Positions 12,108 to 34,895 of a DNA stretch of 64,000 nt are shown here, piece after piece. Position numbers and translations under genes: made by a program. The stretch is from a virus. Lineage: Duplodnaviria; Heunggongvirae; Uroviricota; Caudoviricetes. The stretch lies in IMG/VR virus record IMGVR_UViG_3300034980_000290; one strand, written 5' to 3'. The stretch's first letter is position 1. The number at the start of each line of letters is the position of its first letter. Under the pieces are notes generated by a model that worked only from the letters and a program-made list of their open reading frames with translations, ran no database searches and was not told the origin of the DNA.

Positions 12108-12160
12108 GGCATGCGCCTACAATGGGTGAGCGGGGGCAAGCCCCGCGCAAAGGAGGCAAC
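12108..12160 (+). promoter_or_regulatory. conserved promoter-leader cassette (CTACAAT -10-like, GC hairpin, AAGGAGG RBS)
   Basis: gcgcCTACAATggg ... gcgggggcaagccccgc hairpin ... aaggaggcaacATG. Confidence 0.45.
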
Positions 12161-12688
12161 ATGCCAGAGAAGACCCAACCCCCGGTGGTCATCGCGGTAC
12201 AACCCGCGGACCCCGCAGCCGTCAAGCCCCGCCCGGGCATCCAGCCCGGTGCCATTCCCACCGTCAACAAGGTGGCCGGACTGGGAACCGCATGGTGCTA
12301 TATGCACGCAGCGCCCAACGAGTTCGGGGACGGCGGAACCCGCTACAACCAGCGGAACCTCATCGTCGACGGCGACAACGTCAGGCTGCAAGGACTGGTT
12401 ATCGATGGCAACGGTGGCATTGATCAGCGCCGCAGCCGCGAGTGGCGATGGGACAAGACCCAGCCCGCCACGGCCTGGTCCACCACACCCATGAACGGAC
12501 GTTGGACCGACGCCGCCAACCGGGACAGCCTTGCCCCGCAGACCCTGGACCTGACCGCCTACCCCACGGTCCACGTGTGGCCGGGTGATCAGCAGACCCC
12601 GCCCGCCGTGGCGTTCATCCCCAACGTGGGCACCACCAGGATCTACACGCTGACCAGCGTGTGGGTGGACGGCGACAAGGTGAGCTGA
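12161..12688 (+). CDS. Pro/Ala-rich protein with W-YMHAP-FG-GG-RY motif (paralog of 25367..26044)
   Basis: aaggagg RBS; WCYMHAAPNEFGDGGTRYNQRNLIVDG shared with 25367 gene product. Confidence 0.55.
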   Translation: MPEKTQPPVVIAVQPADPAAVKPRPGIQPGAIPTVNKVAGLGTAWCYMHAAPNEFGDGGTRYNQRNLIVDGDNVRLQGLVIDGNGGIDQRRSREWRWDKTQPATAWSTTPMNGRWTDAANRDSLAPQTLDLTAYPTVHVWPGDQQTPPAVAFIPNVGTTRIYTLTSVWVDGDKVS

Positions 12689-12870
12689 TGAAACACACAG
12701 TCGTCATTGTGCGTACCCTGGTGCAGAAGGCAGAGGTACGGGTGGACGGTAACACCACCAAAGCTGAGGCTGGGGCCGATGCTCTCAGCCCCGAGACGCT
12801 CCAGTATGAGACCCAGTGGAGTGACCCGGTTGAAGAGACCCACCGCATTGAGGACATCAGGGAAGGGTAG
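12688..12870 (+). CDS. hypothetical protein
   Basis: ATG overlapping upstream TGA (TGATG); 60 aa. Confidence 0.35.
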   Translation: MKHTVVIVRTLVQKAEVRVDGNTTKAEAGADALSPETLQYETQWSDPVEETHRIEDIREG

Positions 12871-12878
12871 GATGACTG

Positions 12879-13016
12879 ATGACTGCCACCTACAACGAAG
12901 CTATCAGCAACGTAGCCGCTGAAGTGCGTCGAGAGTGCAAAGTGCTTGGCTTGAGTAGCCCAGTCACCGAGCAGCTCGTCAAGGCCGTCGAGGATCTCAA
13001 GCAGGACGAAGACTGA
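12879..13016 (+). CDS. small hypothetical protein (45 aa)
   Basis: fills gap; stop overlaps next start (TGATG). Confidence 0.25.
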   Translation: MTATYNEAISNVAAEVRRECKVLGLSSPVTEQLVKAVEDLKQDED

Positions 13017-13453
13017 TGGCACTCTGTCTCGTATGCCATGACCAACACAGTGGTACTCATCACTGTGTTGGTCATCCGCCACGGCCCAGGCCAGCAAAGA
13101 ATTTCTACGATGGCCCTCCGGTGCGCACGGTCCAGGTGTGTCGTGATTGTGGTGAAGAGTTCGTTCGCAACTACGAACACACGATCATCTACATGCACCG
13201 CATGAAGATTGGGTTGGTGCTGAACGATGTGTTGGCGGACTGCAATTGGTGTGACCATCCAGACTACAACGGCGATGTCGGCGATGCCTGGATGATGCAT
13301 GAGGCCATTCTTCATTGGTCTTGGCACACGGCAGGGGATTACAATGAAGCGTTGGCAGTGATTCAGATCGAGGAGGAATACGACGTTGACGGACACTACA
13401 CTTGTGACCTTGAAGGTGCCAGAGCGTGGCATCAACGCCTCATGAGCATCTGA
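13016..13453 (+). CDS. Cys/His-rich hypothetical protein
   Basis: 145 aa; CLVCHDQHSGTHHCVGH...CRDCGEE. Confidence 0.45.
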   Translation: MALCLVCHDQHSGTHHCVGHPPRPRPAKNFYDGPPVRTVQVCRDCGEEFVRNYEHTIIYMHRMKIGLVLNDVLADCNWCDHPDYNGDVGDAWMMHEAILHWSWHTAGDYNEALAVIQIEEEYDVDGHYTCDLEGARAWHQRLMSI

Positions 13454-13499
13454 GCGTAATTTGGGCAATCGTGCTCGTTTGTGCTCGTAGCAAGGGAGC

Positions 13500-13811
13500 A
13501 TGAATATGCGTGAAGACACAGCCAGATGGATGGTGTACGCCGGGGCAGCCATCGTGATCTTGTGCACGGGGTATGCTGTTCTCAAGTCCAGCCAGCCCTG
13601 CCACATGGACCACGCGCCACGGCTTCCTCTTACAAAGCCAGAGCCAGCAGTTCATTCTTGGCAGTGGCATCTGGACAACGCCGAGAAGCACCCGCGCATC
13701 ATTGAGCTGCGCAAGAGGCAGGAAGAACAGCGCATCCAGTGGGAGAAGGATGAACAAGAGCGGCGGGATTACATCTTCAAGCTCAATGGCGTGACCAGAA
13801 AGCGTAACTGA
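13500..13811 (+). CDS. membrane protein
   Basis: N-terminal TM helix WMVYAGAAIVILCTGYAVL. Confidence 0.45.
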   Translation: MNMREDTARWMVYAGAAIVILCTGYAVLKSSQPCHMDHAPRLPLTKPEPAVHSWQWHLDNAEKHPRIIELRKRQEEQRIQWEKDEQERRDYIFKLNGVTRKRN

Positions 13812-13827
13812 AAAAGCGGTCGGCGGG

Positions 13828-13889
13828 GGCATGGCGCTACAATATGTGACGCGGGGGCAGGCCAGGCCCAGCGTAGGAGACCATACGCC
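13828..13889 (+). promoter_or_regulatory. conserved promoter-leader cassette
   Basis: gcgCTACAATatg, gcgggggcaggccaggccc hairpin, gtaggagaccatacgccATG. Confidence 0.45.
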
Positions 13890-14165
13890 ATGCCAAGCAA
13901 AAAAACAGAACGCCACTGTCGTCGAACGGCTGACCGCTACCAGCGGGCCGACGAAATAGACCGCGAGACAGACCGCACTTGGTCCAGCCGCCCATGTACC
14001 CGCCCCAAGGGGCTGCGGAAGATGCGCAACATGGTGGAGCGCGGCGAAGCCATTCAGGAACTGCACCTTGCGGTTCGTCGCCTCAAGGCCACTGGGTGCC
14101 CCAAGGACCTGGAGGCAGCGCAAGCCCTGCTCCTCATCCTGCGTGACACCAGGAAAGCGAGGTAG
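13890..14165 (+). CDS. basic hypothetical protein
   Basis: 91 aa directly after conserved leader. Confidence 0.5.
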   Translation: MPSKKTERHCRRTADRYQRADEIDRETDRTWSSRPCTRPKGLRKMRNMVERGEAIQELHLAVRRLKATGCPKDLEAAQALLLILRDTRKAR

Positions 14166-14167
14166 CC

Positions 14168-14548
14168 ATGCGCCAGCGATTCAGCATACCAGAGCACGTG
14201 CAGTGGGATGAACGGGCCACCATGGCCTTCCGCGTGGACGCCTGCCGCACCTTCCTGAACAACCCGGCGCTCCGGGTAAAGTCCGTCATGCACGGCTGGG
14301 CAATTAGTGACGACGTGGTCATGCTCATCGCCTGCGGTGACGACGAACTGTTCACACTCAAGCTGGAGTGGGACAACAACTGGGACAAGCCTGTCACCGA
14401 GCGTGTTCATGAGTTCACGTTCAGGGAGTGTGGGTTGAGCGAATGGTACAACGCTCTGGCGTACCCAGACCCAGTGCTGGGGGTGATCTGGACCGACGCC
14501 TACAGTGACATGGTGGATACCGACTGGCGTGAGCTCAGTCATTGCTAA
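14168..14548 (+). CDS. hypothetical protein
   Basis: 126 aa. Confidence 0.45.
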   Translation: MRQRFSIPEHVQWDERATMAFRVDACRTFLNNPALRVKSVMHGWAISDDVVMLIACGDDELFTLKLEWDNNWDKPVTERVHEFTFRECGLSEWYNALAYPDPVLGVIWTDAYSDMVDTDWRELSHC

Positions 14549-14555
14549 GGGGAGA

Positions 14556-14978
14556 ATGATGGTAGCCAACCCACAAGACACGATCGATCGTCTGCGCTGC
14601 ATGCGCAAAATGATCGCAAGGCAGACCCGCAGGGTGTTGAACGAGGCCAGGGAGGATCCGGGTTTCTTCGCGCTGACGCTGGAGATCAGCGGCCACCTGT
14701 ACTACGACCAGATCCGTGAGGCCGTCGCCAATCGGTGCAAGTACGGGAACTGGCATGACTTGCTGAAGTCTGCCATACGCCCACGTGCGGACGTTCTGTT
14801 CGAGCGGGCAGAGGAGCTGCGGGTCATGTGCGAAGCATTCTGCACCACTGAGCCCGACCCAGAGACGTATCATGCAGAGTACATCCAACAGCAGGCCACC
14901 GCGCTCGCAGACATGGCTGGTGCCTACGAGGATGCAGCACGCCTACTGATGGCGCAGGAAGCAGGAGCGAATGGGTAA
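14556..14978 (+). CDS. hypothetical protein
   Basis: ATG after aaggggagaatg; 140 aa. Confidence 0.45.
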   Translation: MMVANPQDTIDRLRCMRKMIARQTRRVLNEAREDPGFFALTLEISGHLYYDQIREAVANRCKYGNWHDLLKSAIRPRADVLFERAEELRVMCEAFCTTEPDPETYHAEYIQQQATALADMAGAYEDAARLLMAQEAGANG

Positions 14979-15210
14979 GAAACAACCAAGCACCAGGGAC
15001 CAGTTCACAGCAGAGCTACAGAACGTGGCCAAGGCACTCGGTCACATGGAGGGCGTCGAGAAGATGCTTGAAGTGATGGGCGAGCCGAACGAGAACTGGG
15101 GCAGGGAGATGATTCTCAAGCACCAGGAAGCCCTGTCTCGCAAGGAGGAGTACAGGCGCGTCATCCGCAAGACGGTGAAGAATCTGTACCACAGGAGAGA
15201 CGCCATATGA
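14971..15210 (+). CDS. hypothetical protein
   Basis: 79 aa, coupled. Confidence 0.4.
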   Translation: MGKKQPSTRDQFTAELQNVAKALGHMEGVEKMLEVMGEPNENWGREMILKHQEALSRKEEYRRVIRKTVKNLYHRRDAI

Positions 15211-15428
15211 AGCATCACGAAACGAGTGCCAGGGCTCGCGCATGGGTCAGAATGCGTGAGATGATGATGGCACGGCTGGCGCAGATGAATCTCGTTCGCA
15301 AGCGGCACGGTGCCGGTCCGGTAGTCCACAGGCATCCAGAAGACCCAGACGGCGTCTGCGACGGACTGCACTCCACCATCCCTGACCCCAAGAACCCCGG
15401 AGCGTACATCGACATCGGCGGAGGTTGA
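15207..15428 (+). CDS. hypothetical protein
   Basis: 73 aa, ATGA overlap. Confidence 0.4.
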   Translation: MKHHETSARARAWVRMREMMMARLAQMNLVRKRHGAGPVVHRHPEDPDGVCDGLHSTIPDPKNPGAYIDIGGG

Positions 15429-15437
15429 GCCACGGGA

Positions 15438-15616
15438 ATGCGGAAAGAGTATCGCGACATCATCCACGAAGAAGGGATTGACCCCTGGTGCGCAGTGGTC
15501 GTTCTCATCCTGCTGTATGTGGAGTTCGCGTGGCACTGGATCCGCACATGGACTCCCTTTCACAAGCGACGCTGTCGATTTTGTCAGCTTATGTCTGGGC
15601 AGAAGCCAAAGGGATA
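15438..15616 (+). CDS. small membrane protein (59 aa, below ORF-track cutoff)
   Basis: MRKEYRDIIHEEGIDPWCAVVVLILLYVEF... TM helix; more protein-like than overlapping track ORF 15478..15933. Confidence 0.35.
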
Positions 15617-15619
15617 GTG

Positions 15620-15696
15620 GGGGTGCGTGCCTATTGTGCCGTATAGTATGGGGTTGGCGGCACGTGCCGCACACACCACGCACAAGGAGACACGCC
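15620..15696 (+). promoter_or_regulatory. conserved promoter-leader cassette
   Basis: gtgccgTATAGTatgg, gcggcacgtgccgc palindrome, caaggagacacgccATG. Confidence 0.45.
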
Positions 15697-15933
15697 ATGA
15701 AGAACCGCTATGTCATCGCCACCGTGATTGGTGGAAATGCCCGCTACTTGACCAGCGAGCCAGGGCTGACCGACATGGACAACGAGCGGGCGACCGCCCG
15801 TTGGGCACGCCAGCTCAAGAACGCAGACCGGTACACCCGGGAGTGCGCGACTCAACTGGCTGGCATGCTGGCCCAGAACCTGACCGAGTGGGGCAGCCGC
15901 AAGATCTGCGTGGCGGAGATCCAGCCCAAATGA
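15697..15933 (+). CDS. hypothetical protein
   Basis: 78 aa downstream of cassette. Confidence 0.5.
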   Translation: MKNRYVIATVIGGNARYLTSEPGLTDMDNERATARWARQLKNADRYTRECATQLAGMLAQNLTEWGSRKICVAEIQPK

Positions 15934-16154
15934 CCCCCGAAGAAAAGGTGGCCCACTACAGAGCGGGCCGCTACACCTTTGAGGCCAGATACATCATCAC
16001 CAGCGCAGGCTGGAGTGAAGATGACTGGATCAGATACATAGACGCCCACGGCGTTTGGAATCCTCAACCACCCAAGACCAGAGAGCTGCTTGGGCACACA
16101 TGGGATCTTCAACCAAATGGAAACTATCGCAGAAGGGGTGCCAAGGTTGAATAG
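15930..16154 (+). CDS. hypothetical protein
   Basis: ATGA overlap; 74 aa. Confidence 0.4.
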   Translation: MTPEEKVAHYRAGRYTFEARYIITSAGWSEDDWIRYIDAHGVWNPQPPKTRELLGHTWDLQPNGNYRRRGAKVE

Positions 16155-16222
16155 AGTCATCACATCCAAACAGCCATTGATCACTTCGGGTACAAGAGCT
16201 ACCTGGAACTGGGAGTAGTGAA

Positions 16223-16522
16223 GTGAAGATCATCAAGGAGCGCACCTGGAACAGTGACCAGAGCTGGCACTACGAGAAGATCGTGGTGCACCCAGATGGT
16301 TTCCGGTTCCGTGTGCAGATCAAGCGCAACGCCTACGACACGCAGAGCTACGCACGGGTGTCTACGTGGACCACCGAAGAGGGGTGGGAAGTGGTCACCA
16401 CGGATCCCATCGAGGTGTGCGCATGTGCGGGGATCAACTACGTGATGAAGAACGTGCGCAACGCGGACTTCAAGGCTGACGCAGAGCGCCTGCTTGACGT
16501 GGCGCAGGAAGTGGTGGCATGA
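16223..16522 (+). CDS. hypothetical protein
   Basis: GTG start; 99 aa. Confidence 0.4.
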   Translation: MKIIKERTWNSDQSWHYEKIVVHPDGFRFRVQIKRNAYDTQSYARVSTWTTEEGWEVVTTDPIEVCACAGINYVMKNVRNADFKADAERLLDVAQEVVA

Positions 16523-16884: not shown

Positions 16885-16905
16885 AGCGTGCCCAGATGCG
16901 CTTGT

Positions 16906-16971
16906 TCTGGGTGGTGTGGTGCTACAATGGTGGCACGGGCGGCCAGGGCGGCCAGCCCCAGGAGACCACGC
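16906..16971 (+). promoter_or_regulatory. conserved promoter-leader cassette
   Basis: ggTGcTACAATgg ... ccaggagaccacgcATG. Confidence 0.45.
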
Positions 16972-17274
16972 ATGAACAACAGAACCATACCCGCGGACAG
17001 CAAGCTGCTGTGCTACCAGCGCAGTGGCAAGAACGGACTGGTAGCAGACCCCTGCAACCGCGACAACGGCGGACACATGTTTGACCACGTGATGGGGCTG
17101 TGCCGCGCAGAGAGCGACCAAGCCACCATGACCCGGGTCAGCTGGGGCCACGACGACGATGGGTTCATTCCCATGGTGCGGATGACCCTTGGGGACACCG
17201 CGTACTACCTGATGCCGGACTGCTACAGCCACGAACAGATCCAGGCAGCCCTGCTTGAGAAGCAAGATGCTTAG
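16972..17274 (+). CDS. hypothetical protein
   Basis: 100 aa downstream of cassette. Confidence 0.5.
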   Translation: MNNRTIPADSKLLCYQRSGKNGLVADPCNRDNGGHMFDHVMGLCRAESDQATMTRVSWGHDDDGFIPMVRMTLGDTAYYLMPDCYSHEQIQAALLEKQDA

Positions 17275-17782: not shown

Positions 17783-17809
17783 GAAAAGGGAAAATCTGCT
17801 TGTCCTCTG

Positions 17810-17875
17810 CGACCGTCCAGCCGTATAAGGTAGTGACCGAGGTAGATCTTCAACCACAACCTGGGGGGACCACCC
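17810..17875 (+). promoter_or_regulatory. conserved promoter-leader cassette (GCCGTATAAG variant)
   Basis: cagccgTATAAGgtag ... ggggggaccacccATG. Confidence 0.4.
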
Positions 17876-18202
17876 ATGACAAACGCCACGACCGAGACCA
17901 ACCTGTTGCCCGACGTGCTGATGCGCCATGGCACTCGCGCACTCCAAGCCCAGACCGGTTACCAGCACGTCAACGTGTCATGCTACGGCGACATCCTCGT
18001 CGGCCATGGCTGGCGTGCAGCCAGGAATCCCTGGGAAGCCACGATGTGGTGCCCAGGCCCGATGGGACCGCTGTACGGCTACGATGCCTGGGCCAGGATC
18101 CAGATGATCATCAAGAACATTCGGCGCAGGCAGGAAGACGGTTCCCTGCCCGACTTCCTCAAGGACTCGGCGGTCCGGCCCGCCAAGACCTTGGGTGGGT
18201 GA
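17876..18202 (+). CDS. hypothetical protein
   Basis: 108 aa. Confidence 0.5.
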   Translation: MTNATTETNLLPDVLMRHGTRALQAQTGYQHVNVSCYGDILVGHGWRAARNPWEATMWCPGPMGPLYGYDAWARIQMIIKNIRRRQEDGSLPDFLKDSAVRPAKTLGG

Positions 18203-18221
18203 TCTCTCCCACTCGCAGCAT

Positions 18222-18262
18222 GCCCCGCCGCCCCCTGATCAGGGACGGCGGGGCTTTTTTGT
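18222..18262 (+). terminator. rho-independent terminator
   Basis: ccccgccgccc...gggacggcgggg stem followed by cttttttgtg. Confidence 0.6.
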
Positions 18263-19147: not shown

Positions 19148-19210
19148 GTGTGGTGCTACCATTGTGTACGCAACCACGCGCCCGCGACAGGGCGCACAAG
19201 GAGACACGCA
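19148..19210 (+). promoter_or_regulatory. conserved promoter-leader cassette
   Basis: ggTGcTACCATtg, gcgccc-gcgaca-gggcgc hairpin, caaggagacacgcaATG. Confidence 0.45.
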
Positions 19211-19498
19211 ATGACCGAGAAGAAGTACACGGCCAAGCACGACGTCATCAACCCTGCGGACCCAACCCAGCGCACGACGGTGGAGTGGGCAGACGGCATC
19301 CGCTACTTCAAGATCACGCTCATCTGGGGCGTGGAGATCGAGTGCTGCGCCCAGCGTGTGCACTACAGCGACCCGATTGACGAGGCCGCTGCCAACGCCG
19401 TGCTGAAGGAGCTGGGACAGGACAGCTACACGGACATCATGGATGCCGTGGAAGCTGACGACGCCGAGGACTACGCTCTTGAGGAGTTGGGACGATGA
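19211..19498 (+). CDS. hypothetical protein
   Basis: 95 aa. Confidence 0.5.
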   Translation: MTEKKYTAKHDVINPADPTQRTTVEWADGIRYFKITLIWGVEIECCAQRVHYSDPIDEAAANAVLKELGQDSYTDIMDAVEADDAEDYALEELGR

Positions 19499-20100: not shown

Positions 20101-20197
20101 GGCGTCTTGTACGGAAACGCCGGTCTCACCTTGGTTTGTGCTACAATACGGTACGCAGGGGCCGCATTCCGCGGCCCCACCAACCAAGGAGACCACG
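20101..20197 (+). promoter_or_regulatory. conserved promoter-leader cassette with extended upstream box
   Basis: cttgtacggaaacgccggtctcaccttggtttgTGcTACAATacgg, ggggccgc-attcc-gcggcccc hairpin, ccaaggagaccacgcATG; upstream box also present at 21570. Confidence 0.5.
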
Positions 20198-20516
20198 CAT
20201 GAAGACACAAGCGGGCAACTACCAACCATGGGCCACGATCTGTCTGTACACTGGCACAGGCACCGATCGCCAGCCCGGGCCGATCAGCGTACCGATCAAA
20301 GAGGCGCTGGAAAGCATTGAAGAAATGCTGCCCAGGCCCATGGCAGGCGACGAAGTCGTCGACATCGACGTAGACGTCATCCATGTGGCAGCCCCGGGCT
20401 GGCGAATCTCACTATTCCTCAGCGATGAGATGGGGACGAGGGAGATGGCCGCAGAGTGGGGCGACGAGGCCAACAGACTACACCTGATCGCTTGCAGGGG
20501 GCCGAACAATGACTGA
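20198..20516 (+). CDS. hypothetical protein
   Basis: 106 aa. Confidence 0.5.
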
Positions 20517-21569: not shown

Positions 21570-21664
21570 CGTTGTACGGAAACGCTGGTCTGCCTTGGCA
21601 TGTGCTACAATACACTTGGCACGGCACGCGCAATCTTGCAGCGGGCCACGCCAGGAGACCACGC
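21570..21664 (+). promoter_or_regulatory. conserved promoter-leader cassette with extended upstream box
   Basis: gttgtacggaaacgctggtctgccttggcatgTGcTACAATacac ... gccaggagaccacgcATG. Confidence 0.5.
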
Positions 21665-21940
21665 ATGTCCACAATCAACACCGCAACCAACCCGGTCAAC
21701 TGGTTGGAAGTCCGCGCTGATTCTGCGCGGGTCATCGCCATGGAGCGCTGCACGGAAGCGTGGCTGTTCCACAGCGCCACCATGCCCTGCGACAATCCGG
21801 TGGCGCGAGACTTCGTCACGGAGCACACCACGTACGAAGGACTCATGGAAGGCGGCACACTCGTCCTTCTGTGGTACGGCGCTGCGCCGGTCAATCACGT
21901 GGTGTCCGTAGGCATCATTCCCCCCGCAGACGCACGCTAA
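21665..21940 (+). CDS. hypothetical protein
   Basis: 91 aa. Confidence 0.5.
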   Translation: MSTINTATNPVNWLEVRADSARVIAMERCTEAWLFHSATMPCDNPVARDFVTEHTTYEGLMEGGTLVLLWYGAAPVNHVVSVGIIPPADAR

Positions 21941-22639: not shown

Positions 22640-23583
22640 TAGCATTGACACCCTCGATTGACAGTATCGTCAGCTGAACAGTCGCCAACGACACGACCAT
22701 AGGAAGACTTCATCTCTGTTCACAGATTCGTTCCCTACATAGGGGATAGGGGACCGAAAGACAGCTGAAGACTGACCACCACCCCCAGACGAAGAAGTGA
22801 AAGACACTGAGACCGATAGGTGCTCCAAGGGCCTACCTCCCCCTACCCCTGAGCCAGACCACAGAGAGACCAAGAGAGACAAGATAGAGCACCAGAGAGT
22901 ACATACTCCGTCTTGGAGTGAGATACGAGCGAGAGAGATTTTGCCTGTCTCATCTCTCTATTTCAGTCGTCCTTAGACGGATCCCGGCGTAGATCAGTAC
23001 GGATCCGCATATTCTTGGCATCTCGTTAGCCAGAAAAGTTCCTGTCTTATCCGGATCTCCGGAACAGATACAGATCTTGACACGGAAATAGATCTGGATC
23101 TGCATAGACAGAAAGATAACGAGAGATACGGATCCGCATAGATCAAGATCCTTTTGTCTACTTTTGCCTACCCTCGAGACACCCTCTCGACGGATAGACG
23201 GAAGTCACGGACCACAGATGTGCCCAGGAAGGTACTTCCCCTGCCCGTTCCGCACAGACGTGACCAGACTGACGCACTGCTGTGGGTAGGCCCATATATT
23301 CTTGGTGCCTTCTTGTGCGTTCTTAGCCCCTATCCTGCCCAGACGTGTTGCCTGCGGCCACCAGCGCCCACCACCTGGTCTGTGGTGGATCACAAGCCAT
23401 CAAAATCTCGTATCTCCAGAAGACTACAGATAGCGTGGGGTTCTGCAGATGAATCCGGATATCTACTTCTTGGGCTTCTACGGCATCTAACACGGAAGCT
23501 GTGGGGTATGTGGCACGTGTGCCGTATAATAGGGTACACACGCAACCAGTGGCACACGTGCCACATAACCAAGGAGCACACGC
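22640..23583. repeat. non-coding lower-GC region with AG-rich tract, GATC cluster and direct repeats (candidate origin/regulatory region)
   Basis: 10 GATC sites in 22977-23151; acggatccgcata x2; TTAGCCAGAAAAGTTCNTGTCTTATC copy 1 at 23022-23050 (copy 2 at 24483-24511). Confidence 0.5.
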
Positions 23584-23847
23584 ATGTCAATCAACAACAA
23601 CCTTACCCAACACCAACTCTTCCAGCTTGGCTACGCAGCCGCGCCGGAAGGGTGCAAGGAAGTCATCCGTAACGCAGAGCTGCTGAAGGCGCGAGGCAAC
23701 AAGCACACGCTGGCCCTGATGGCAGACGGCCAGCACGCGCTGGCCACACGGATGGGCGCAGAGCGGGACCAGTGCTGGCAGGCTGTGCGGCACATGGTCA
23801 TCACCCAAGACTGGAGCAATCTGGCAGGCAACCGCTACACACGGTAG
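23584..23847 (+). CDS. hypothetical protein
   Basis: 87 aa, directly after cassette ccaaggagcacacgcATG. Confidence 0.5.
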   Translation: MSINNNLTQHQLFQLGYAAAPEGCKEVIRNAELLKARGNKHTLALMADGQHALATRMGAERDQCWQAVRHMVITQDWSNLAGNRYTR

Positions 23848-23906
23848 TCATCCCAAAGGGGTGGGGCAGCCCACCCCTCCTGACCACACAAGGAGTGTTG
23901 CTACTA

Positions 23907-24375: not shown

Positions 24376-24589
24376 CAGACAAACAAAGACAGCGTGTGAC
24401 TCCTACGGAGGTGAGGATTTGCGCCTTGGATGGGCGTACGTTCTCACCTCCATCTTAGCCACCTTTGGTCTAGAGGTGAATTCGTTAGCCAGAAAAGTTC
24501 GTGTCTTATCTAGATATCCAGACTGAGAGACTGAGAGAGACTGAGAGACTCTCGAACAATCCGAAAAACGTCTGTCTTGTCTGGGCTGG

Positions 24590-25365
24590 GAGAGCTGCGG
24601 CATTTTGCCGCAGCAGTGCGGCATTCTGCCGCACCCTACATCTTGTGGTGCGGCATTCTGCCACACCAGTGCGGCATTTTGCCGCGGCACGTATGGCACG
24701 GGATTTGTTTCGGCACGGGATTTGTTTCGGCACGGGATTTGTTTCGGCACGGCACGTGCCATGGCACGGGATTTGTTTCGGCACGGCACGTGCCATGGCA
24801 CGGCATGTGCTACGCGCGGGTGGTGCTAAAGAGAAACGGCATAATCCGGGTGTCCACTTTTGAGGACACGGGTGTCCACTTTTGGGGAATGGCACAAGTG
24901 CCTGCCACGGCGGCACTTATGGCATGGCACGTAGGAATTGAGGGTATTGAGTGTCCTCTTTTGAGGACACCCGGGTTTGTATGCAACGTCCGTGCCACAA
25001 GCGGCACAAAGTATTTTTCTGGCATAAGCGTATGGCATATATAGACTTATGGCATGGCACGTATGGTCCGTCCGTCCGTCCGTCCATCTGGCACGGCCGT
25101 TGCTCTATGATGGGTGTCGGTGGCACAAAGCCAGGGCGCAAGGCCCGTCGACCCCGAATAGGGTTTACAGTTTACGTCCGCACCATATGGCGCGGACATG
25201 CATGCAAGTAGCAGGCACGGATCGCACGCACACGCCATCGCCAACCGGGGAACCGGGACCACTCGCCATGGCATGCCACTCGGGTTCCGGTACTACTTGC
25301 ATGCATGTCCGTGCCGTACGGTGTGGGCATTTCAACGCAACACGCAAACGATAGGAGACACGCAA
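24590..25365. repeat. iteron/palindrome array (candidate replication origin or operator cluster)
   Basis: gcggcattYtgccgc inverted repeat x4 (24597-24685); 17-mer ggcacgggatttgtttc x4 (24695-24779); gtgtccacttttgaggacac palindromes (24848-24972); ttatggcatggcacgta x2; (gtcc)5 microsatellite near 25066-25085; pervasive GGCAC/GTGCC half-sites. Confidence 0.6.
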
Positions 25366-25366
25366 C

Positions 25367-26044
25367 ATGACACGCAAAAAGAACACGGACAAGGCGGCCC
25401 CGGTGGTCGAAGCGGCGGCCCCGGTGGTCGAAGCGGCGGCCCCGGAAGCGGCGGCACCCACGGCACCCACGGCGGCCCCGGTGGCGGCCCCGGTGGACGC
25501 GGCCCCCACGGTCCGCCCCATCACGTGGGACGATGACGCGGCCCCGCCCACCATGGCGGACCTTCGGACGGCGGCCAGTGCCGTCCGCACGGGTTCGGCG
25601 GGCTGGTGGTACATGCACGCGCCGGACGGCAAGTTCGGCAACGGTGGCAAGCGGTACACCCACCGTCTGGCCATCGTGGACGGCATCGGCGATGCCCTTC
25701 CGGACGGTACGCGCCCCATCAACGGCGTGCGCTTCGTCGGGTTGACCTTCGACGCGGACGGCACGGTTGACCCGGCCGGGTGCGCTTCGTGGGTGCCCTC
25801 GACACGCGACCCGGCCCATGCGCCCATGGTCAAGGCGGACGGTCGCACGGTGGCGGGTTTGCCCTCCACGGCGGGCAACGGTGGCCCCGCCCCGCAGTGC
25901 GCGGACACCCGGGGCGCGCGCATCACGCTGCACCCCAACGTGGACGCGGACGGCACCCCGACCATGGTGGTGTCCGGTGCCAAGGGGGGCGCGTACAGTC
26001 TCTCCGGCATCGTGGACGCGGACGGCACCCCGCTGGCACTGTGA
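25367..26044 (+). CDS. Pro/Ala-rich protein with W-YMHAP-FG-GG-RY motif (paralog of 12161..12688)
   Basis: cassette ataggagacacgcaacATG; 21-nt in-frame tandem repeat gcggccccggtggtcgaagcg x2; GWWYMHAPDGKFGNGGKRYTHRLAIVDG. Confidence 0.55.
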   Translation: MTRKKNTDKAAPVVEAAAPVVEAAAPEAAAPTAPTAAPVAAPVDAAPTVRPITWDDDAAPPTMADLRTAASAVRTGSAGWWYMHAPDGKFGNGGKRYTHRLAIVDGIGDALPDGTRPINGVRFVGLTFDADGTVDPAGCASWVPSTRDPAHAPMVKADGRTVAGLPSTAGNGGPAPQCADTRGARITLHPNVDADGTPTMVVSGAKGGAYSLSGIVDADGTPLAL

Positions 26045-29225: not shown

Positions 29226-29495
29226 ATGAGCAAAAAACGGGTGAAAATGGCCGAAAACCGGGTAACTCCACGAAGAATTGTCATGTGTACCCGCCATGGC
29301 TGCTGTCGGCGGTTCCTTTTGCCCGTCACACACTACGTAGGCCGTTGCCCCCACTGTTTCACCATTGTGCGCCCGGAAATACTGCCCGACCACGCGCAAA
29401 GAATCCCTTCCCGGTTCGTATGGTTTATGATAGGCGCGTGCTGTCTCATGGCCGTGTTGGTCGCAGGGACATGGCTCGCCAGAACAGTGGGGTAA
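29226..29495 (+). CDS. zinc-finger plus TM small protein
   Basis: CTRHGCC...CPHC then WFMIGACCLMAVLVAGTWLA. Confidence 0.3.
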   Translation: MSKKRVKMAENRVTPRRIVMCTRHGCCRRFLLPVTHYVGRCPHCFTIVRPEILPDHAQRIPSRFVWFMIGACCLMAVLVAGTWLARTVG

Positions 29496-29498
29496 CCC

Positions 29499-29894
29499 AT
29501 GAAACTTTCCTGCAAGCAGGACATGGCCGTGAAGGCATGTGTCCGTCTCGTTGAGTTCTATCCCAAGATGAGCAGCACCGAACAGGTAGCTGAGCTCGAG
29601 GTCTTCTCAGAAGCGCATCTTGGCCGGGTTTTTCGCCGTCTCGCCGTGGCGGGAATCGTGGAACTGGTGAGAGGCCGGAAAGGCGGTGTCAGGCTTGCGA
29701 AAGCGCCCGAAAAGGTGAATCTGGCCGAAATCATCCGCGCAATCGCCGATGACGCCATGATTGAAGCGAATGGGGGCAATCGGGGCCAAAAACGGCTGAA
29801 GGGGCTGTTCGATGTGCTCCAGGGCCGCCTGATGGCCGGGTTGGCGCAGGTGACCCTACAAGAGGTTGCTTCAAAAGATCTAATCCGCGTATAG
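29499..29894 (+). CDS. Rrf2-family transcriptional regulator
   Basis: N-terminal wHTH typical of Rrf2 (IscR/NsrR): MSSTEQVAELEVFSEAHLGRVFRRLAVAGIVELVRGRKGGVRLAKAPEKVNLAEIIRAI. Confidence 0.6.
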   Translation: MKLSCKQDMAVKACVRLVEFYPKMSSTEQVAELEVFSEAHLGRVFRRLAVAGIVELVRGRKGGVRLAKAPEKVNLAEIIRAIADDAMIEANGGNRGQKRLKGLFDVLQGRLMAGLAQVTLQEVASKDLIRV

Positions 29895-30132
29895 GGCGAT
29901 AGGGGGTGCCCGCGGAGGCCCGTACCTTCAACTTCTATTCCCATTCCCTTCTTCTTCGCGTGGTAGCCTCAGCGTTGCCGCGCATCCCGTTGATTCCCTG
30001 CGGGCCGAGATGTGCGGGTGCCCCCGCCTTTTCTCCAGGCCACGAACGCGGCGGGACCGTATAGTGCTATGATGGGGAGGGGCCTCGGCCCTTCTCGCGC
30101 TTCCCTGGCGCAACTTCCTGTAGCCCACGCTT

Positions 30133-30176
30133 CCGCCGCCTGTCGATGCTGGCCCGTCGACAGGCGGTCTTTTTTG
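30133..30176 (+). terminator. rho-independent terminator
   Basis: cctgtcgatgctggcccgtcgacagg stem then cggtcttttttgtg. Confidence 0.6.
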
Positions 30177-30334
30177 TGCCTGTCGTATGTATGGCGTGCG
30201 GTGCAGTACGATTGGCTGAATTTTTTGATTGTGCGGATTGTCTGGGGTGCACGCCCCAGGGAACGCCAACACGACTGCATTGCAAGAATCTTCTCAACCC
30301 TTGTGCGCTGGCGCGTTCAGGGGTTCTTTAGTGA

Positions 30335-30946
30335 GTGACCATGAGAACGCTACTGATCGCCCTTCTGCTGGCCGCCACTGCCACCGCGCAGGCCCCGAAC
30401 ATCATCGAGGAGGACTTGGGCACCGTCTTCCCCCTGACCAACTTCAGCATGACGGGGTACATGAACGCCCCATTCGGTGAGCACGACGCACCCATCTGTC
30501 CCGTCTTTGCGAAGAACGGAAAGGTGGAAGTCCATCTACCGGCACAGTACCCGCCGTACTTCGGAATCCCTGAATTGACGGCTTGTGTGCATTACGTCAG
30601 TGCTTGGCCCATTCCAGACGCCGGACAGCGCGGGATGGAGTTCAAGAAGGATGCTCAGGGCAAGGTGGTTGGCATTCGAGACCCGAATCCGGTCGCATGG
30701 GCACTCCCTCGCACTCACACTCTGTGGGGCTTTTGGGGCGGCCAGATGCCTATTTTTCGAAATGTCTTCGACGCGACCAACATGGAGACGGTTTTGCTGA
30801 TCAACATCAAGCGTTGGAAGCAAATCGTTCCCTATCCGCCTCAGCTGGTTGGAAATTCGTTCGCGATTCAGTGCTTCGTCATTTTCACGGATGCGTCGGG
30901 CACGAAACGGGGTTTCACCACCCTACCGGCCACGGTCCGCTTGTAG
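30335..30946 (+). CDS. secreted protein (signal peptide)
   Basis: MTMRTLLIALLLAATATAQA|P signal peptide. Confidence 0.5.
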   Translation: MTMRTLLIALLLAATATAQAPNIIEEDLGTVFPLTNFSMTGYMNAPFGEHDAPICPVFAKNGKVEVHLPAQYPPYFGIPELTACVHYVSAWPIPDAGQRGMEFKKDAQGKVVGIRDPNPVAWALPRTHTLWGFWGGQMPIFRNVFDATNMETVLLINIKRWKQIVPYPPQLVGNSFAIQCFVIFTDASGTKRGFTTLPATVRL

Positions 30947-31323
30947 GGGCTCGTATACCTGGGGGCCAAAGCACAAAAGCACCTTGAACCAGTTAGCGAC
31001 CGCCCTACGACACATGAATCTCTATTGCATAGCGGTTTTGGTTCAAATCACTCTAAGTACCGCAAATGCGCCTTACATCAAAGAAACCCAGGTATCGACA
31101 GCGGCGTAAGGACTTAGAAGCCCCAGTCTGCATAGCGCATAGCCCTACATCATAAAAAACCAACTCGTCGAGCGAGCGCCTTACCAGACAGAAACCCTGC
31201 GAAACAGCGCGCCAAGATGAACATCAACCTTGCAGACTACAGCGACGCAGAACAGTGGTTTCCGGGCCGTTTTTGGGCGCATAGTGGCATAGGCGGCAAC
31301 TGGGCCGCCAAGGAGAAGCGAAA

Positions 31324-31677
31324 ATGACCGCATCGATACTGACCGTTGCCCAGGACGTGGAGGCCACTTTCGGTGCTCTTGCTGTGGGTCAATACGGTTT
31401 CTACTACTTGCCGAACGGCAAGGACAGCCTCTTGGCCAACAACAGCGTGCATGACTTCAAGTGCATGCTGAGCGGTGATGAGGCCGACTTCATCGAGAGC
31501 AACATCCACCGCCGCCGCGAGTGTCGCGGCATTTGCCTGAGTGGCCTGGAGTCCGGTCTGTCATGGCACTACTGCTATGAGCCCGGCAAGCGACTGAAGA
31601 TCGGCTGTCTGGTCATGCTCGGCGCCGTGGTGCGTGAGTTTGAGCGGTACATCACCGACAACTACAACGCCCCGTAG
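31324..31677 (+). CDS. hypothetical protein
   Basis: 117 aa. Confidence 0.45.
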   Translation: MTASILTVAQDVEATFGALAVGQYGFYYLPNGKDSLLANNSVHDFKCMLSGDEADFIESNIHRRRECRGICLSGLESGLSWHYCYEPGKRLKIGCLVMLGAVVREFERYITDNYNAP

Positions 31678-31741
31678 AGGATTCTCAACCGTATGGTAGG
31701 ATAGGCCGTGCTGCGCCGCACACGCCGCACGGCCTTCAACT

Positions 31742-32305
31742 ATGATCGAGTCAGCATTCGCATGGATCACAGACTTTGTGATGTGGCTGGCGAGCTTAGT
31801 CCCTCGCTGGCGATTCACTCGATCTACGCATGAGGGGGTGGCGTATCTGCTCGGCAAGTACGTGCGCCACTGGAAGGCAGGGGCACATTTCTACTGGCCG
31901 CCCATTACTGACTTTGACGAGATTCCCGTGGTCCGGCAGACCATGGACTTGCCAGAGCAGACCATCACCACGAAAGACCTCAAAACGGTTTTGGCCAGTG
32001 CGGTCATCACATACCGCATCTCGGATGTCGTTGTCGCGTTATCTCAGCAATGGGACTATGAAGACACCATCAGAGACCTTTCACAAGCCGCTCTCCGTGA
32101 CTACGTGTGTGAGCGTGAGTTCGAAGCCATCGCAACCCAGAGACGCCACTCTGGCAAACAGATGGCCACAATGGCCAATGATGAACTCAAAGAGTGGGGT
32201 GTTGAGGTAATCAACATGAGACTCCAAGAGTTCGCGATTACCAAAGCCGTCAGCCTCCACGGACAAGGTGGAGGCTACGTGCCTGATGATGAGGAAGAAG
32301 AATGA
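31742..32305 (+). CDS. SPFH (band 7/stomatin/prohibitin) domain protein
   Basis: N-terminal TM, then VVRQTMDLPEQTITTKDLKTV...VITYRISD...LSQAALRDYVCEREFEAIATQR typical of SPFH. Confidence 0.45.
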   Translation: MIESAFAWITDFVMWLASLVPRWRFTRSTHEGVAYLLGKYVRHWKAGAHFYWPPITDFDEIPVVRQTMDLPEQTITTKDLKTVLASAVITYRISDVVVALSQQWDYEDTIRDLSQAALRDYVCEREFEAIATQRRHSGKQMATMANDELKEWGVEVINMRLQEFAITKAVSLHGQGGGYVPDDEEEE

Positions 32306-33198
32306 TTCGTACGCTTTGTGTCATGCTGTCTCTCATGTGTGGGCTTGGTGCGGGCCAAACCCCGCCTCCGGCGCCCCTGCCCAATCTGAGCGGCCTCACA
32401 GTGCCCACTAACCCACCAGCGGCCACACCGGCCGACATGGCCCACCTGGTCCTTCCGACGCCGACCAGCACGTCCCACACCTTCCAGGCTTTCAATGCGA
32501 CGTATGCCGCTCTGGCAGACATCCCGCTCGGCAGTCTGGCAGGCCCCACCAAGTGGACCAACACCGGATACCCGCCTCAACTGCATGCGCCAGGTCACCC
32601 GAACGCCGGACAGCCGGTCTATGCCGTTCCTGCGAAATGGATGCCTTCCATCGGCCGAGGGTACTTCGGAAGGGCGTGGACGGGTAACATCCGTGATCTT
32701 TCAACCGGGTTGCTGGTTTCTGCCAGCCTTCCGCGCCGAATCGGCTTCACAATCTCAAACTCGATGGGACAGAACATTCTCTTCGGGTTGCCGTCAAAGT
32801 GGTCAGACTTCGATCAGGTTCACATGTACTACGCCCCGATTGACATGAACACGCTGCCGTCGCGTAATGTGACGATAACGGAGCTCATGAATCCATTCAG
32901 GGGTGATCAGCGCCTTGAGATGCTGACATACAACCCGACCACCTTCGGATGGTGGGCGAAGACATGGCCCATGATGAAGTTCGAGACCACCAGGGCTCAA
33001 TGGTCCCGCGTCCCTGACTTCATGGGCCGTCAGACCAAACACATGGACATGTGGGTTGAACTGAGCGATGCGGGTTACAACGCTCTCAAGGGCAAGTCCA
33101 TGGCATTTCAGCCGTTTGTGGTGTATGGCACCAACGCAACATGGCTCGGGGCTGCTCTGGGTGTCCCATTTTCGATCTACGTACCAGAAGGGCAGTGA
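32302..33198 (+). CDS. secreted/lipoprotein-like protein
   Basis: signal peptide MIRTLCVMLSLMCGLGAGQ; Pro-rich after cleavage region. Confidence 0.45.
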   Translation: MIRTLCVMLSLMCGLGAGQTPPPAPLPNLSGLTVPTNPPAATPADMAHLVLPTPTSTSHTFQAFNATYAALADIPLGSLAGPTKWTNTGYPPQLHAPGHPNAGQPVYAVPAKWMPSIGRGYFGRAWTGNIRDLSTGLLVSASLPRRIGFTISNSMGQNILFGLPSKWSDFDQVHMYYAPIDMNTLPSRNVTITELMNPFRGDQRLEMLTYNPTTFGWWAKTWPMMKFETTRAQWSRVPDFMGRQTKHMDMWVELSDAGYNALKGKSMAFQPFVVYGTNATWLGAALGVPFSIYVPEGQ

Positions 33199-33497
33199 TG
33201 ATCAGCTTGGATCAACTTAGCTTCAGTATCATGGCGGTTTGTTCGGTCAGGTACGCCCTGGGCAAAGAAACCGTTGAAGTGAAGGATATCGCCGAAATCG
33301 TACTGGCCAACCTCCAATACCTGGAGGCAGACGATCTCGAGGGTATGATCCACGACATCTGCAACTCACCGCGCAGCCATGGCGCTGGTGAGATGACCTG
33401 GAAGGCTTTCTGCAAGCGGCTGTCGGAGCAGCTTGCCAGCCTTGACACGAACGGTTTTCGGCGGTGTGTCTCGAAACTGGCGGAGAGATGGGTCTGA
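33198..33497 (+). CDS. hypothetical protein upstream of sigma factor
   Basis: 99 aa; ATG overlaps upstream TGA. Confidence 0.4.
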   Translation: MISLDQLSFSIMAVCSVRYALGKETVEVKDIAEIVLANLQYLEADDLEGMIHDICNSPRSHGAGEMTWKAFCKRLSEQLASLDTNGFRRCVSKLAERWV

Positions 33498-33537
33498 AAA
33501 GCGTATAACTCCTTGTCAGGAAAAGGCCCGCCACCTG

Positions 33538-34527
33538 ATGGCCAAGAAAAGCACCAAGAAATCTGCAGAGCCAGAGGCAGTGCAACAAGCGTGGAAACGC
33601 TACAAGTCCAGAGGTGCAAAGGGGGGACGGCAAGAGGATAGGGACATCATTGTTGGCCAGTACATGCAGCTCGTTCGCTACGCTGCGAACCATGCCTGGA
33701 AGACGCTGCCGAACAACATTGATGTTGAAGACCTGGTATCCACTGGGTTTTTTGGTCTTTTGGACGCGATTGAGGGTTTTGACCTCTCGCGCAAGATCAA
33801 GTTCAAGACCTACTGCATGATGCGCATTCGTGGCGCCATGCTTGACGGCCTTCGCCGAGAGGATTGGATACCCCGCCTCGTTCGCTTGAAGGCCAGCCAG
33901 CACCGCAAAGCCGCCAAGAACGTGATGGCCCGCACTGGCTTACCGCCAACCCAAGAAGAAATGGCTGACGAGCTCGGTCTCACCGAGATTGAGTATGCCA
34001 AGTTCAAAAAGGCGATGGGGGTCATTCATGTCTACCCCCTGTCAGACAAGTTTGAGGCTGGCACCAGCGGCGAAGGCGTTGATAAGATTGATGTCATCGC
34101 CGATCCCAAGTCTGCTGAACCCATTGTTGAGCTTGAATCTGCTGATGCTGTAGTGCACATCATGCGGTGCTTGACAGCGCGTGAGAAGCGCATTGTGATG
34201 ATGTACTACTACATGGGCTTCACGATGAAGCAGATCTCGGAAGCCTTGGATCTCACTGAATCTCGCGTTTGCCAGATACACTCAGCCTTCATTGAGCGGT
34301 TGAGGTGCATGATTGAAAGAGACGGGCTTGACAATGCCGAAATACCGCAAGGGCGAAATGATGACGCGGTGGGGGTCTGTCGGGCTGTTTTGCGTGACCT
34401 CAAATGGCGTGGTGAAGAACGACGGCGATCTGGTAATGGGAAGAGGAATGGCCGCTTTACTGAAAAAGAAGTGGCCGCAATCCGCAACCCTGGCGGGAGA
34501 GAAGGCGACGGCGTGGTACAAGGCTGA
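33538..34527 (+). CDS. sigma-70 family RNA polymerase sigma factor (FliA/sigma-28-like group)
   Basis: region 2 DLVSTGFFGLLDAIEGFD...YCMMRIRGAMLDGLRR; region 4 HTH LTAREKRIVMMYYYMGFTMKQISEALDLTESRVCQIHSAFIERLR; C-terminal 70 aa low-complexity and overlapping next gene. Confidence 0.7.
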   Translation: MAKKSTKKSAEPEAVQQAWKRYKSRGAKGGRQEDRDIIVGQYMQLVRYAANHAWKTLPNNIDVEDLVSTGFFGLLDAIEGFDLSRKIKFKTYCMMRIRGAMLDGLRREDWIPRLVRLKASQHRKAAKNVMARTGLPPTQEEMADELGLTEIEYAKFKKAMGVIHVYPLSDKFEAGTSGEGVDKIDVIADPKSAEPIVELESADAVVHIMRCLTAREKRIVMMYYYMGFTMKQISEALDLTESRVCQIHSAFIERLRCMIERDGLDNAEIPQGRNDDAVGVCRAVLRDLKWRGEERRRSGNGKRNGRFTEKEVAAIRNPGGREGDGVVQG

Positions 34528-34828
34528 GAACAACAAAGCCTACAACCTCATCTACCTTCAGCACCCAGATCAGCTTGTCGGTCTGTTTCAGACCAAACTC
34601 CACTTCTCACACCGCGCCCGCTTCGATCTCATCTACTGGGGCCTGCACTACCTCAAGAAGTGGGCCACCGCTTACCCTGACAGCATTGCGTGCATCAACT
34701 TCCCTGGAGTTGGCCTCGGGGGCCTTTACCCCGATGAAGTGGCCCTTTTGCTCAGGGTGCTGCCCAAGAACGTGGAAGTCTGGTCTCGGGGTGAAAAAAG
34801 CGTAGAGAGCGTTATTCTGGGCGAGTAG
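34313..34828 (+). CDS. macro-domain (ADP-ribose binding/processing) protein
   Basis: VTSNGVVKNDGDLVMGRGMAALLKK (macro VNAAN..GGGV.GAI-like) and CINFPGVGLGGLYPDEVA (IAFPaIStGvyGyP-like); true start probably M at 34358; overlaps sigma ORF in different frame. Confidence 0.5.
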   Translation: MKETGLTMPKYRKGEMMTRWGSVGLFCVTSNGVVKNDGDLVMGRGMAALLKKKWPQSATLAGEKATAWYKAENNKAYNLIYLQHPDQLVGLFQTKLHFSHRARFDLIYWGLHYLKKWATAYPDSIACINFPGVGLGGLYPDEVALLLRVLPKNVEVWSRGEKSVESVILGE

Positions 34829-34844
34829 CGCAGATGGGCGTGTC

Positions 34845-34895
34845 TGGTGGCACGTGTGCCGTATAAGGGTGCAGGCACAAAACCAAAGGCACAAC
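34845..34895 (+). promoter_or_regulatory. conserved promoter-leader cassette (GCCGTATAAG variant)
   Basis: gtggcacgtgtGCCGTATAAGggtg. Confidence 0.4.

Follow-up and report, generated by a model that had tools for sequence, protein, structure and literature searches.

What is the role of a short composite element that recurs, in one orientation, before gene after gene of a phage? We addressed this question in a 64,000-nucleotide (nt) stretch of DNA, referred to as the window, from the virus record IMGVR_UViG_3300034980_000290 (Caudoviricetes). The window is a phage segment of 59% GC with essentially all genes on the + strand. Alignment of the element, which we term a cassette, revealed two conserved blocks, a promoter-like box and a Shine–Dalgarno (SD) block next to the start codon, around a variable middle that in part of the copies folds into a GC-rich stem. 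Judged from their sequence, the cassettes are probably transcription–translation start modules, which combine a sigma-70-family promoter lacking a detectable -35 element, a 5' stem-loop and a strong SD block.

Two box families and the sigma factor that would read them

The boxes fall into two classes, G[T/C]GCTAC[A/C]AT (GYGCTACMAT, class A) and CGTAT[A/G][A/G] (CGTATRR, class B). GYGCTACMAT has six matches in the window, all on the + strand, against 0.30 expected from shuffled sequence, and a seventh class A copy, CGCCTACAAT, lies at 12114. The shorter string CTACAAT is split 6:0 between the + and - strands, and 7 of the 8 CTACMAT boxes are located in intergenic gaps. For class B, the CGTATAR core has 13 matches, again all on the + strand (2.4 expected), and GTGCCGTATAR has three exact ones (0.7 expected). 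CGTAT[AG][AG] occurs 20 times on the + strand versus three times on the - strand, and 18 of the 20 + copies are intergenic, while the gaps make up 17% of the window. An unbiased comparison of k-mers between gaps and coding sequence also placed CGTATA, CGTATAA, CTACAAT, AGGAGAC, GGAGACA and ACCACGC near the top. The whole family comprises about 25 same-strand boxes between 6.3 and 54 kb, and 18 boxes sit 20–55 nt 5' of a start codon. The initial annotation, which had described about 11 cassettes with two box flavours at 12.1–34.9 kb, was thus right about the repeated architecture and about both flavours. Neither the number nor the range holds, as it left out the copies at 6315, 7831, 9407, 10207, 29417, 29888, 30058, 31690, 33502, 53659 and 53898 (Table 1). 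We can only infer that the genes behind the cassettes are early genes, as they had been labelled; CGTATRR boxes also occur within the tail module (53659 and 53898).

Very probably, the boxes act as promoters at the head of small-orphan-gene blocks, given their strict strand bias, intergenic site, fixed distance to starts and TATAAT-like core, the boxes that head terminator-ended RNAs without an open reading frame (ORF), and the TATAAT boxes in relatives. The earlier proposal of a phage-specific promoter class is supported to this extent, the sequence family being specific to this phage. The boxes at 29888 and 30058 each head a structured ORF-less RNA (z = -4.4 and -4.2, respectively) ending in a stem and a T-run, and by these features they are complete small transcription units. 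The segments 29888–30036 and 30058–30176, just 3' of an Rrf2 regulator gene, are candidate phage small RNAs. An Rfam search of 29.7–31.4 kb at E <= 1 returned nothing but one chance match to a long non-coding RNA, and no Rfam family reached its gathering threshold anywhere in the window. In two related contigs of IMG/VR (L081 and L082), TATAAT-type boxes lie 0–10 nt from an ATG in the gaps 1–80, 6098–6136 and 16602–16701 of L081 and 16563–16661 of L082. Furthermore, the L081 junction homologous to 34829–35426 carries a TATAAT box just before the next ATG. The short distances in L081 and L082 suggest leaderless or very short-leader mRNAs in this lineage.

Which sigma factor would read the boxes was judged from their fine structure. 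In class A, A-11 and T-7 are invariant, TAC(A/C)AT is found in 7/7 boxes, and TGn (often TGTG) in 4/7. Primary-sigma promoters with an extended -10 element (TGn or TRTG) can lack a -35 element, and by its motif the TGCTACAAT class, i.e., class A, is a textbook extended -10 for the primary sigma. The likeness lies in (T)GTGC-TACAAT with its invariant A-11 and T-7. It does not extend to the three of seven class A boxes in which CG replaces TG, nor to class B, which lacks a conserved T-7 and has a conserved CG just 5' of TATA(A/G), with TGn in register in no box. No k-mer between -42 and -12 exceeded the null in either class, and a scan with the consensus showed the + strand to be free of TTGACA-type sites.

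The initial annotation had suggested the phage sigma encoded at 33538–34527 as the reader. This protein is, by homology, a FliA/WhiG-family sigma: it scores 211.1 bits against TIGR02479 (cutoff 189.6), matches the Pfam r2 and r4 domains and, weakly, r3, and has WhiG/FliA-family structures (6PFV; E. coli FliA, 6PMI) as its top PDB matches. The FliA/WhiG (sigma-28) promoter consensus is TAAA-N15-GCCGATAA with a CGA core, the -10 element being (G)CCGATAA. This consensus was matched by no cassette of either class, and a relaxed scan of the window gaps gave nothing convincing. Since no cassette fits it and a class B box (CGTATAA) precedes even the sigma gene, the link to the phage sigma is unsupported. 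The only full match in the window, at 41107, was rejected as a promoter. GTG 41096, rather than ATG 41162, is the most likely start of the terminase large subunit, whose N-terminal SRLKLGR is conserved in L081, and the string at 41107 is thus coding sequence.

A narrower version assigns CGTATRR alone to the phage FliA/WhiG-type sigma, in a self-reinforcing middle or late programme, and leaves the TGCTACAAT class to the host primary sigma. The lack in class B of the T-7 needed by primary sigmas, with the conserved CG upstream instead, would fit, and the frequent GCCG-T-ATAA equals (G)CCGATAA plus one inserted T. Class B boxes in the tail module and before the sigma gene would allow autoregulation, and the absence of a canonical sigma-28 promoter from every gap leaves the targets of this sigma otherwise unaccounted for. 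However, region 4 is retained in the protein, yet no TAAA or other common -35 is present; the CGA core, invariant in sigma-28 promoters, is missing; and classes A and B alternate in one co-directional array with the same SD block. True targets could also lie in the 48 kb of the 112.6-kb contig beyond the window. We consider this version unlikely. A bolder one is likewise improbable: CGTATRR would represent a new specificity of this sigma (a derivative of GCCGATAA shifted by one nucleotide), gated by GGCAC operators. A phage factor would recognise the AC(C)ACGC spacer at the starts, and the planctomycete virus would thereby have a self-contained transcription–translation programme. For the cassettes as a whole, we retain a probable -35-less sigma-70-family promoter read most simply by the host enzyme.

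Leader stems, palindromes and the start block

In the 3' part of the cassette, the pattern GGAGAC-N0-4-ACGC-N0-2-ATG has six matches against 0.07 expected, relaxed copies lie at 9420, 23573 and 25354, and nine starts have GGAG(A)C..ACGC..ATG in common. The block was found at cassette starts only, and a box precedes each copy. In the cassettes, A and C make up 69% of the 20 nt that immediately precede the ATG, compared with 51% for the other genes (p = 1.5e-7). Of the 11 cassettes for which a near-invariant start block had been claimed, eight carry it and those at 12161, 17876 and 34896 deviate. A search for a small RNA antisense to the block gave 32 matches versus 23.5 expected, and the sole non-coding + strand match has three mismatches.

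To assess the middle part, 19 leaders were folded from the box end to the ATG and compared with dinucleotide shuffles and with equal-length coding segments. Nine of the 19 leaders ranked under the 10th percentile of the coding controls (binomial p = 4e-5, Fisher p = 1e-5), and leaders hold perfect stems of >= 6 bp at 2.5 times the density seen in the remaining sequence. Selected stems reach -9 to -20 kcal/mol with z = -2.1 to -4.0. Class A stems have no sequence in common and start 7–11 nt (up to 16) after the hexamer; the 7–11-nt spacing is seen in about seven units. The position-conserved hairpin of the initial annotation is clear at 12161, 15697, 16972, 19211, 20199 (there given as 20198), 21665 and 23584, weak at 13890, and absent at 17876, 25367 and 34896. 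Moreover, the 25367 copy is doubtful, its box GTGCCGTACGG lying in an arm of a 34-nt inverted repeat, even though the relaxed start block at 25354 is present.

Two other roles of the stems were considered. They are not intrinsic terminators, as they have no U tract and none appeared in the terminator scan, whereas the genuine terminators (2958–2990, 18222–18261, 30135–30175 and 46901–46924) carry T-runs. RNase III processing needs an extended duplex of about 20 bp, and stems of 5–8 bp are too short for T7-like RNase III sites. With such short stems of differing sequence, the antitermination role that had been envisaged is unlikely, and so is processing by RNase III.

These features lead us to a putative model of cassette function. 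Each module would open with a -35-less sigma-70-family -10 element, G(T/C)GC-TAC(A/C)AT or (Y)CG-TAT(A/G)(A/G), and transcription would start about 6–9 nt past the box, in the simplest case by the host RNA polymerase holoenzyme carrying its primary sigma. In about half of the units, the transcript would begin with, or soon reach, a short GC-rich stem-loop of variable sequence. Then would come an A/C-rich, G-poor stretch with AAGGAG, followed by AC(C)ACGC as a fixed spacer and by the ATG. The stem-loop may shield the mRNA 5' end from 5'-end-dependent decay and hold leader structure off the ribosome-binding site (RBS). The start block would then provide strong, uniform translation initiation for the first gene of each orphan block. 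The units are modular: one type of box and block recurs before genes that are unrelated, and in at least one case a box and its gene form an insertion when compared with related phages.

Several observations weigh against this model. T is found at -7 in only 3 of 10 CGTATAR boxes, which is unusual for a primary sigma. Taken one by one, only about 5–6 of the 19 leaders reach significance against dinucleotide shuffles, and about half of the cassettes have no hairpin. The predicted accessibility of the RBS is alike in cassettes and other genes (0.53 vs 0.49, p = 0.23). No cassette-carrying relative was found in any collection searched, the phage being an orphan for this region, and other assemblies of the same phage (L083 and L084) are 99.9–100% identical, and therefore offer no population variation to exploit. 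Box and hairpin are separated by as little as 1 and as much as 19 nt, and the stems at 9416 and 53906 cannot be fully contained in a transcript from their own box, their 5' arms lying too near it. In addition, a promoter-less stem of the cassette type lies between genes at 23857–23878 (9 bp, GC-rich, AGGGGTGGG-GCAG-CCCACCCCT, no T-run).

The last two points, together with the single terminator within 12–24 kb, from which read-through is expected, would suit stems that act on read-through polycistronic RNA, as intercistronic processing sites, 3'-end stabilisers or attenuators tuning neighbouring blocks. Such a role is improbable, as the stems are too short for RNase III and lack U tracts, and most begin 7–11 nt past the hexamer, as a 5'-terminal hairpin would.

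Another objection concerns class B. Several apparent hairpins of the CGTATAA subclass are copies of one palindrome, GGCAC-N0-2-GTGCC. The nine GGCAC..GTGCC palindromes all lie at class B boxes or in the 24.6–25.1 kb repeat region, except one that is intragenic. Two of them (23512 and 34849) are 5' of the box, hence outside any RNA initiated there, and at the 23584 cassette two inverted 20-nt copies flank the -10 element, about 41 bp apart centre to centre. Furthermore, GGCACG is the top gap-enriched hexamer (26 observed vs 2.8 expected), and 78 of the 255 GGCAC/GTGCC words fall within the intergenic 17% of the window. Because palindromes 5' of the box cannot act in RNA, the class B GGCAC palindromes are more likely DNA operators for a DNA-binding protein than RNA stems, a further point against the model as applied to this class. 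Extended to all cassettes, this idea makes the inverted repeats operators (putative site GTGGCACGTGTGCC) of a dimeric phage or host regulator, for instance the Rrf2-family protein encoded at 29499 or some repressor, and the hairpin a by-product of symmetry. In that general form it is possible but not favoured. Class A stems share no sequence and hence cannot bind one sequence-specific protein, the half-site spacing varies (0, 1 or 2 nt), no regulator is linked to the site, and the GGCAC excess comes partly from sigma-54-like TGGCAC elements. On these grounds, class A copies probably carry an RNA stem and class B copies probably DNA operators.

Modularity and genomic context

Some cassettes are alike well beyond the box and the block. 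The 45-nt upstream box that the initial annotation had seen at 20101 and 21570 is confirmed (38/45 identical between the 20199 and 21665 cassettes), and it also extends to the 19211 cassette (34/45 with 20199). Extended identity also links 16972 with 19211 (27/37) and 23584 with 34896 (26/33). Similar cassettes do not precede related genes. The window has one paralogue pair only, 12161–12688 and 25367–26044 (37% identity over 73 amino acids), each the first gene after its cassette. L081 has the conserved genes on either side of gene 34896 but neither this gene nor its box, and the TATAAT box occupies the junction; being absent from this syntenic junction, the 34896 unit behaves like a moron-type insertion.

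These findings raise the possibility that conservation stems mainly from recombination. The cassettes would then be portable, PeSL-like homology patches that shuffle orphan blocks, with the SD spacer and upstream boxes inherited rather than selected. The pairs and triplets with extended identity before unrelated genes, the box-plus-gene indel relative to L081 and a 41-nt direct repeat around the 23584 module (23023–23063 and 24482–24522, 88% identical) speak for it. Yet the stem-bearing middle is unconserved while both ends are conserved, the reverse of what recent copying predicts, and a single indel was examined. Recombination as the main cause is therefore doubtful, and the start-module model remains our preferred explanation.

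The phage is an uncultivated orphan. The window had no nucleotide match among 50,697 phage records, and the terminase is only 30% identical to that of the Microcystis phage yong1. L081 and L082 share a syntenic structural module and terminases of 61–67% identity, have a GC content of 39–46%, and contain none of the cassette motifs. The genes at 12–24 kb are small orphans without a Pfam match, as were all products tested; among 5.8 billion proteins, gp12161 matches itself only. Motif searches were likewise negative. The RBS 15-mer gave single chance matches in viral contigs, the class B 18-mer gave none, and the box-plus-block pattern gave none in metagenomes and one chance match in a Coriobacteriaceae metagenome-assembled genome. 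A 581-amino-acid anchor protein had no relatives among metagenome or viral contigs, and exact-protein look-ups for four early-region proteins were unsuccessful. The sigma protein has an identical copy on a 112,629-nt contig, and its closest homologues, Planctomycetota FliA/WhiG proteins (~47% identity), are the sole clue to the host, which is thus probably a planctomycete. The host FliA locus (L086) contains no flagellar genes within 10 kb and no motif.

Table 1. Cassettes and related boxes of the window, in order of position (nt)
Position	Strand	Type	Box	Leader and start block	Start codon and remarks
6315..6360	+	class A	GCGCTACCAT (6315-6324)	AAGGAGCAAGCC	ATG 6358; not in the initial annotation
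7831..7896	+	class B	CGTATAG (7831-7837), overlaps upstream stop	hairpin TGAGGC/GCCTCA (7845-7863), AAGGAG	ATG 7894
9407..9437	+	class B, short leader	CGTATAG	GGAGACACACCACGC; inverted repeat GCGTGG/CCACGC (9416-9434) around SD	ATG 9435
10207..10283	+	class B	CGTATAA	GC-rich structure with palindrome GGGCAC-G-GTGCCC (10231-10244)	no adjacent start codon
12114..12163	+	class A	CGCCTACAAT	hairpin GCGGGG-GCAAG-CCCCGC (12130-12146; -13.6 kcal/mol), AAAGGAGG	ATG 12161
13834..13892	+	class A	GCGCTACAAT	weak imperfect GC structure, GGAGACCATACGCC	ATG 13890
15636..15699	+	class B	GTGCCGTATAGT	palindrome GCGGCAC/GTGCCGC (15657-15670), AAGGAGACACGCC	ATG 15697
16919..16974	+	class A	GTGCTACAAT	imperfect GC-rich stem-loop (16936-16958), AGGAGACCACGC	ATG 16972
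17820..17878	+	class B, no hairpin	GCCGTATAAG	degenerate block GGGGGGACCACCC	ATG 17876; canonical terminator after gene (18222-18261)
19153..19213	+	class A	GTGCTACCAT	hairpin GCGCCC-GCGACA-GGGCGC (19178-19195), AAGGAGACACGCA	ATG 19211
20106..20201	+	class A	shared upstream box (20106-20137), GTGCTACAAT (20138-20147)	8-bp hairpin (20158-20178; -19.7 kcal/mol), AAGGAGACCACGC	ATG 20199
21571..21667	+	class A	shared upstream box, GTGCTACAAT (21602-21611)	branched stem (21615-21655), AGGAGACCACGC	ATG 21665
23504..23586	+	class B	GTGCCGTATAAT (23519-23530)	20-nt inverted repeat (23504-23523/23551-23570, 95% complementary) around box, GTGGCAC-NN-GTGCC per arm; AAGGAGCACACGC	ATG 23584
25311..25369	+	doubtful copy	GTGCCGTACGGT, in right arm of 34-nt inverted repeat 25178-25211/25293-25326	no hairpin; TAGGAGACACGCAAC	ATG 25367
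29417..29501	+	CGTATGG-TT-TATGAT box	CGTATGG-TT-TATGAT		ATG 29499; upstream of Rrf2-family regulator gene (29499-29894)
29888..30036	+	CGTATAG box and ORF-less RNA	CGTATAG	~130 nt, z = -4.4; terminator-like GCGGGTGCCCCCGC+CTTTTCT	
30058..30176	+	CGTATAG-TGC-TATGAT box and ORF-less RNA	CGTATAG-TGC-TATGAT	~100 nt, z = -4.2; 14-bp terminator with T6 run (30135-30175)	
31690..31744	+	CGTATGG/TAGGAT box	CGTATGG/TAGGAT	long hairpin GGCCGTGC...GCACGGCC (31703-31735; z = -4.0)	ATG 31742; SPFH/Band 7 gene
33502..33540	+	CGTATAA box	CGTATAA	no hairpin	28 nt before ATG of FliA/WhiG-type sigma gene (33538-34527)
34849..34898	+	class B	GTGCCGTATAAG	palindrome GGCACGTGTGCC upstream of/overlapping box; no downstream hairpin, weak SD	ATG 34896
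53659..53692	+	CGTATGG box	CGTATGG		ATG 53690, 23 nt after box; within tail module
53898..53949	+	CGTATAA box	CGTATAA	hairpin CCCGGG...CCCGGG (53906-53933) 1 nt past box	ATG 53947; weak tail assembly chaperone match

Near its 5' end, gene 25367 contains GC-rich coding repeats of 21, 12 and 9 nt, near the start of another assembly (window position 25416). The 41-nt direct repeat flanks the four genes headed by the 23584 cassette, and non-coding DNA of lower GC content surrounds this module over about 0.9 kb to either side. The non-coding region 24560–25330 is dense in repeats: GCGGCATTYTGCCGC palindromes (four copies), tandem units of 17 nt (GGCACGGGATTTGTTTC and GGCACGGCACGTGCCAT), GTGTCC..GGACAC in inverted repeats, and the inverted repeat of 34 nt. 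It also has divergent perfect matches to sigma-54-type promoters, TGGCACGGCCGTTGCT at 25089 on the + strand and TGGCACGGACGTTGCA at 24982–24997 on the - strand, with three one-mismatch copies nearby. From this composition, a replication origin or a promoter region that depends on an enhancer is conceivable.

Directly after the last cassette gene, a + strand gene at 35427–36392 encodes a 321-amino-acid protein that matches the whole profile NF052498, 'TIGR-Tas system RNA-guided endonuclease', with 113.5 bits (cutoff 100). Its only PDB match is 9MTY, PHROGs label it 'transposase', and homologues are present in L081 and L082. A TIGR array (tandem interspaced guides) was not detected near the gene; according to a preprint, such arrays can be scattered or without sequence conservation. 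At 1351–2271 (+), a homologue of the DpdA-like queuine tRNA-ribosyltransferases (phrog_887, E = 9e-36) suggests 7-deazaguanine modification of the phage DNA.

Relation to known elements and meaning

The cassettes resemble two kinds of known phage elements. In the PeSL (promoter-early stem-loop) cassettes of T4-type phages, a stem-loop interpreted as terminating the unit before it lies upstream of a promoter with a -35 box (Arbiol 2010, PMC2839356; Comeau 2014, PMC4122927). Like PeSL, the cassette is a repeated composite intergenic element of about 60–100 nt that combines a stem-loop with a sigma-70-like promoter and ends 3' in an SD sequence and start codon. Both are clustered among small orphan genes and have variable stems. 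In contrast to PeSL, the cassette stems lie downstream of the -10 element and lack a U tract, and no -35 element is detectable. PeSL are associated with indels between relatives, of which the cassettes provide one case, the 34896 unit versus L081.

The second likeness is to the SAS and ESAS elements of Cluster K phages, whose function was still unproven in 2025; SAS is a 13-nt motif, GGGATAGGAGCCC, 3–7 nt before the start codon. Here too, a block in one orientation combines AGGAG with positions that have no potential to pair with 16S rRNA, lies a few nt upstream of the ATGs of unrelated non-structural families, and has an inverted repeat just upstream in about half of the copies. The sequences differ, however: the cassette block is AAGGAGAC(C)ACGC and abuts the ATG or lies within 3 nt of it, while SAS is GGGATAGGAGCCC. 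The arms of ESAS follow an imperfect 17-bp genome-wide consensus, whereas class A stems share none and only the class B palindromes share GGCAC/GTGCC. A -10 box before every block further distinguishes the cassettes from SAS/ESAS.

The proposed role of the stem is reminiscent of the 5'-terminal stem-loops that stabilise mRNAs, such as the ompA leader of E. coli and the 5' stabilisers of Bacillus and phage SP82. In both, a short stable stem at or near the predicted 5' end precedes an unstructured ribosome-binding region. Unlike in those leaders, the distance between stem and predicted start exceeds 10 nt in several cassettes, and the 5' ends are here predicted only.

In summary, from these comparisons the cassettes appear to act like PeSL and SAS/ESAS and to belong to neither. 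Their probable function is ordinary phage gene control, normal for accessory regions, and the current understanding is unchanged. If the boxes are active, the cassettes would provide a ready set of promoter, leader and RBS for a host group, probably Planctomycetota, with essentially uncharacterised promoters and uncultured phages. They would also represent a second, independent 'start-associated' conserved block, so that the question raised by SAS, whether the part that does not pair with rRNA is functional, would become testable in another system.

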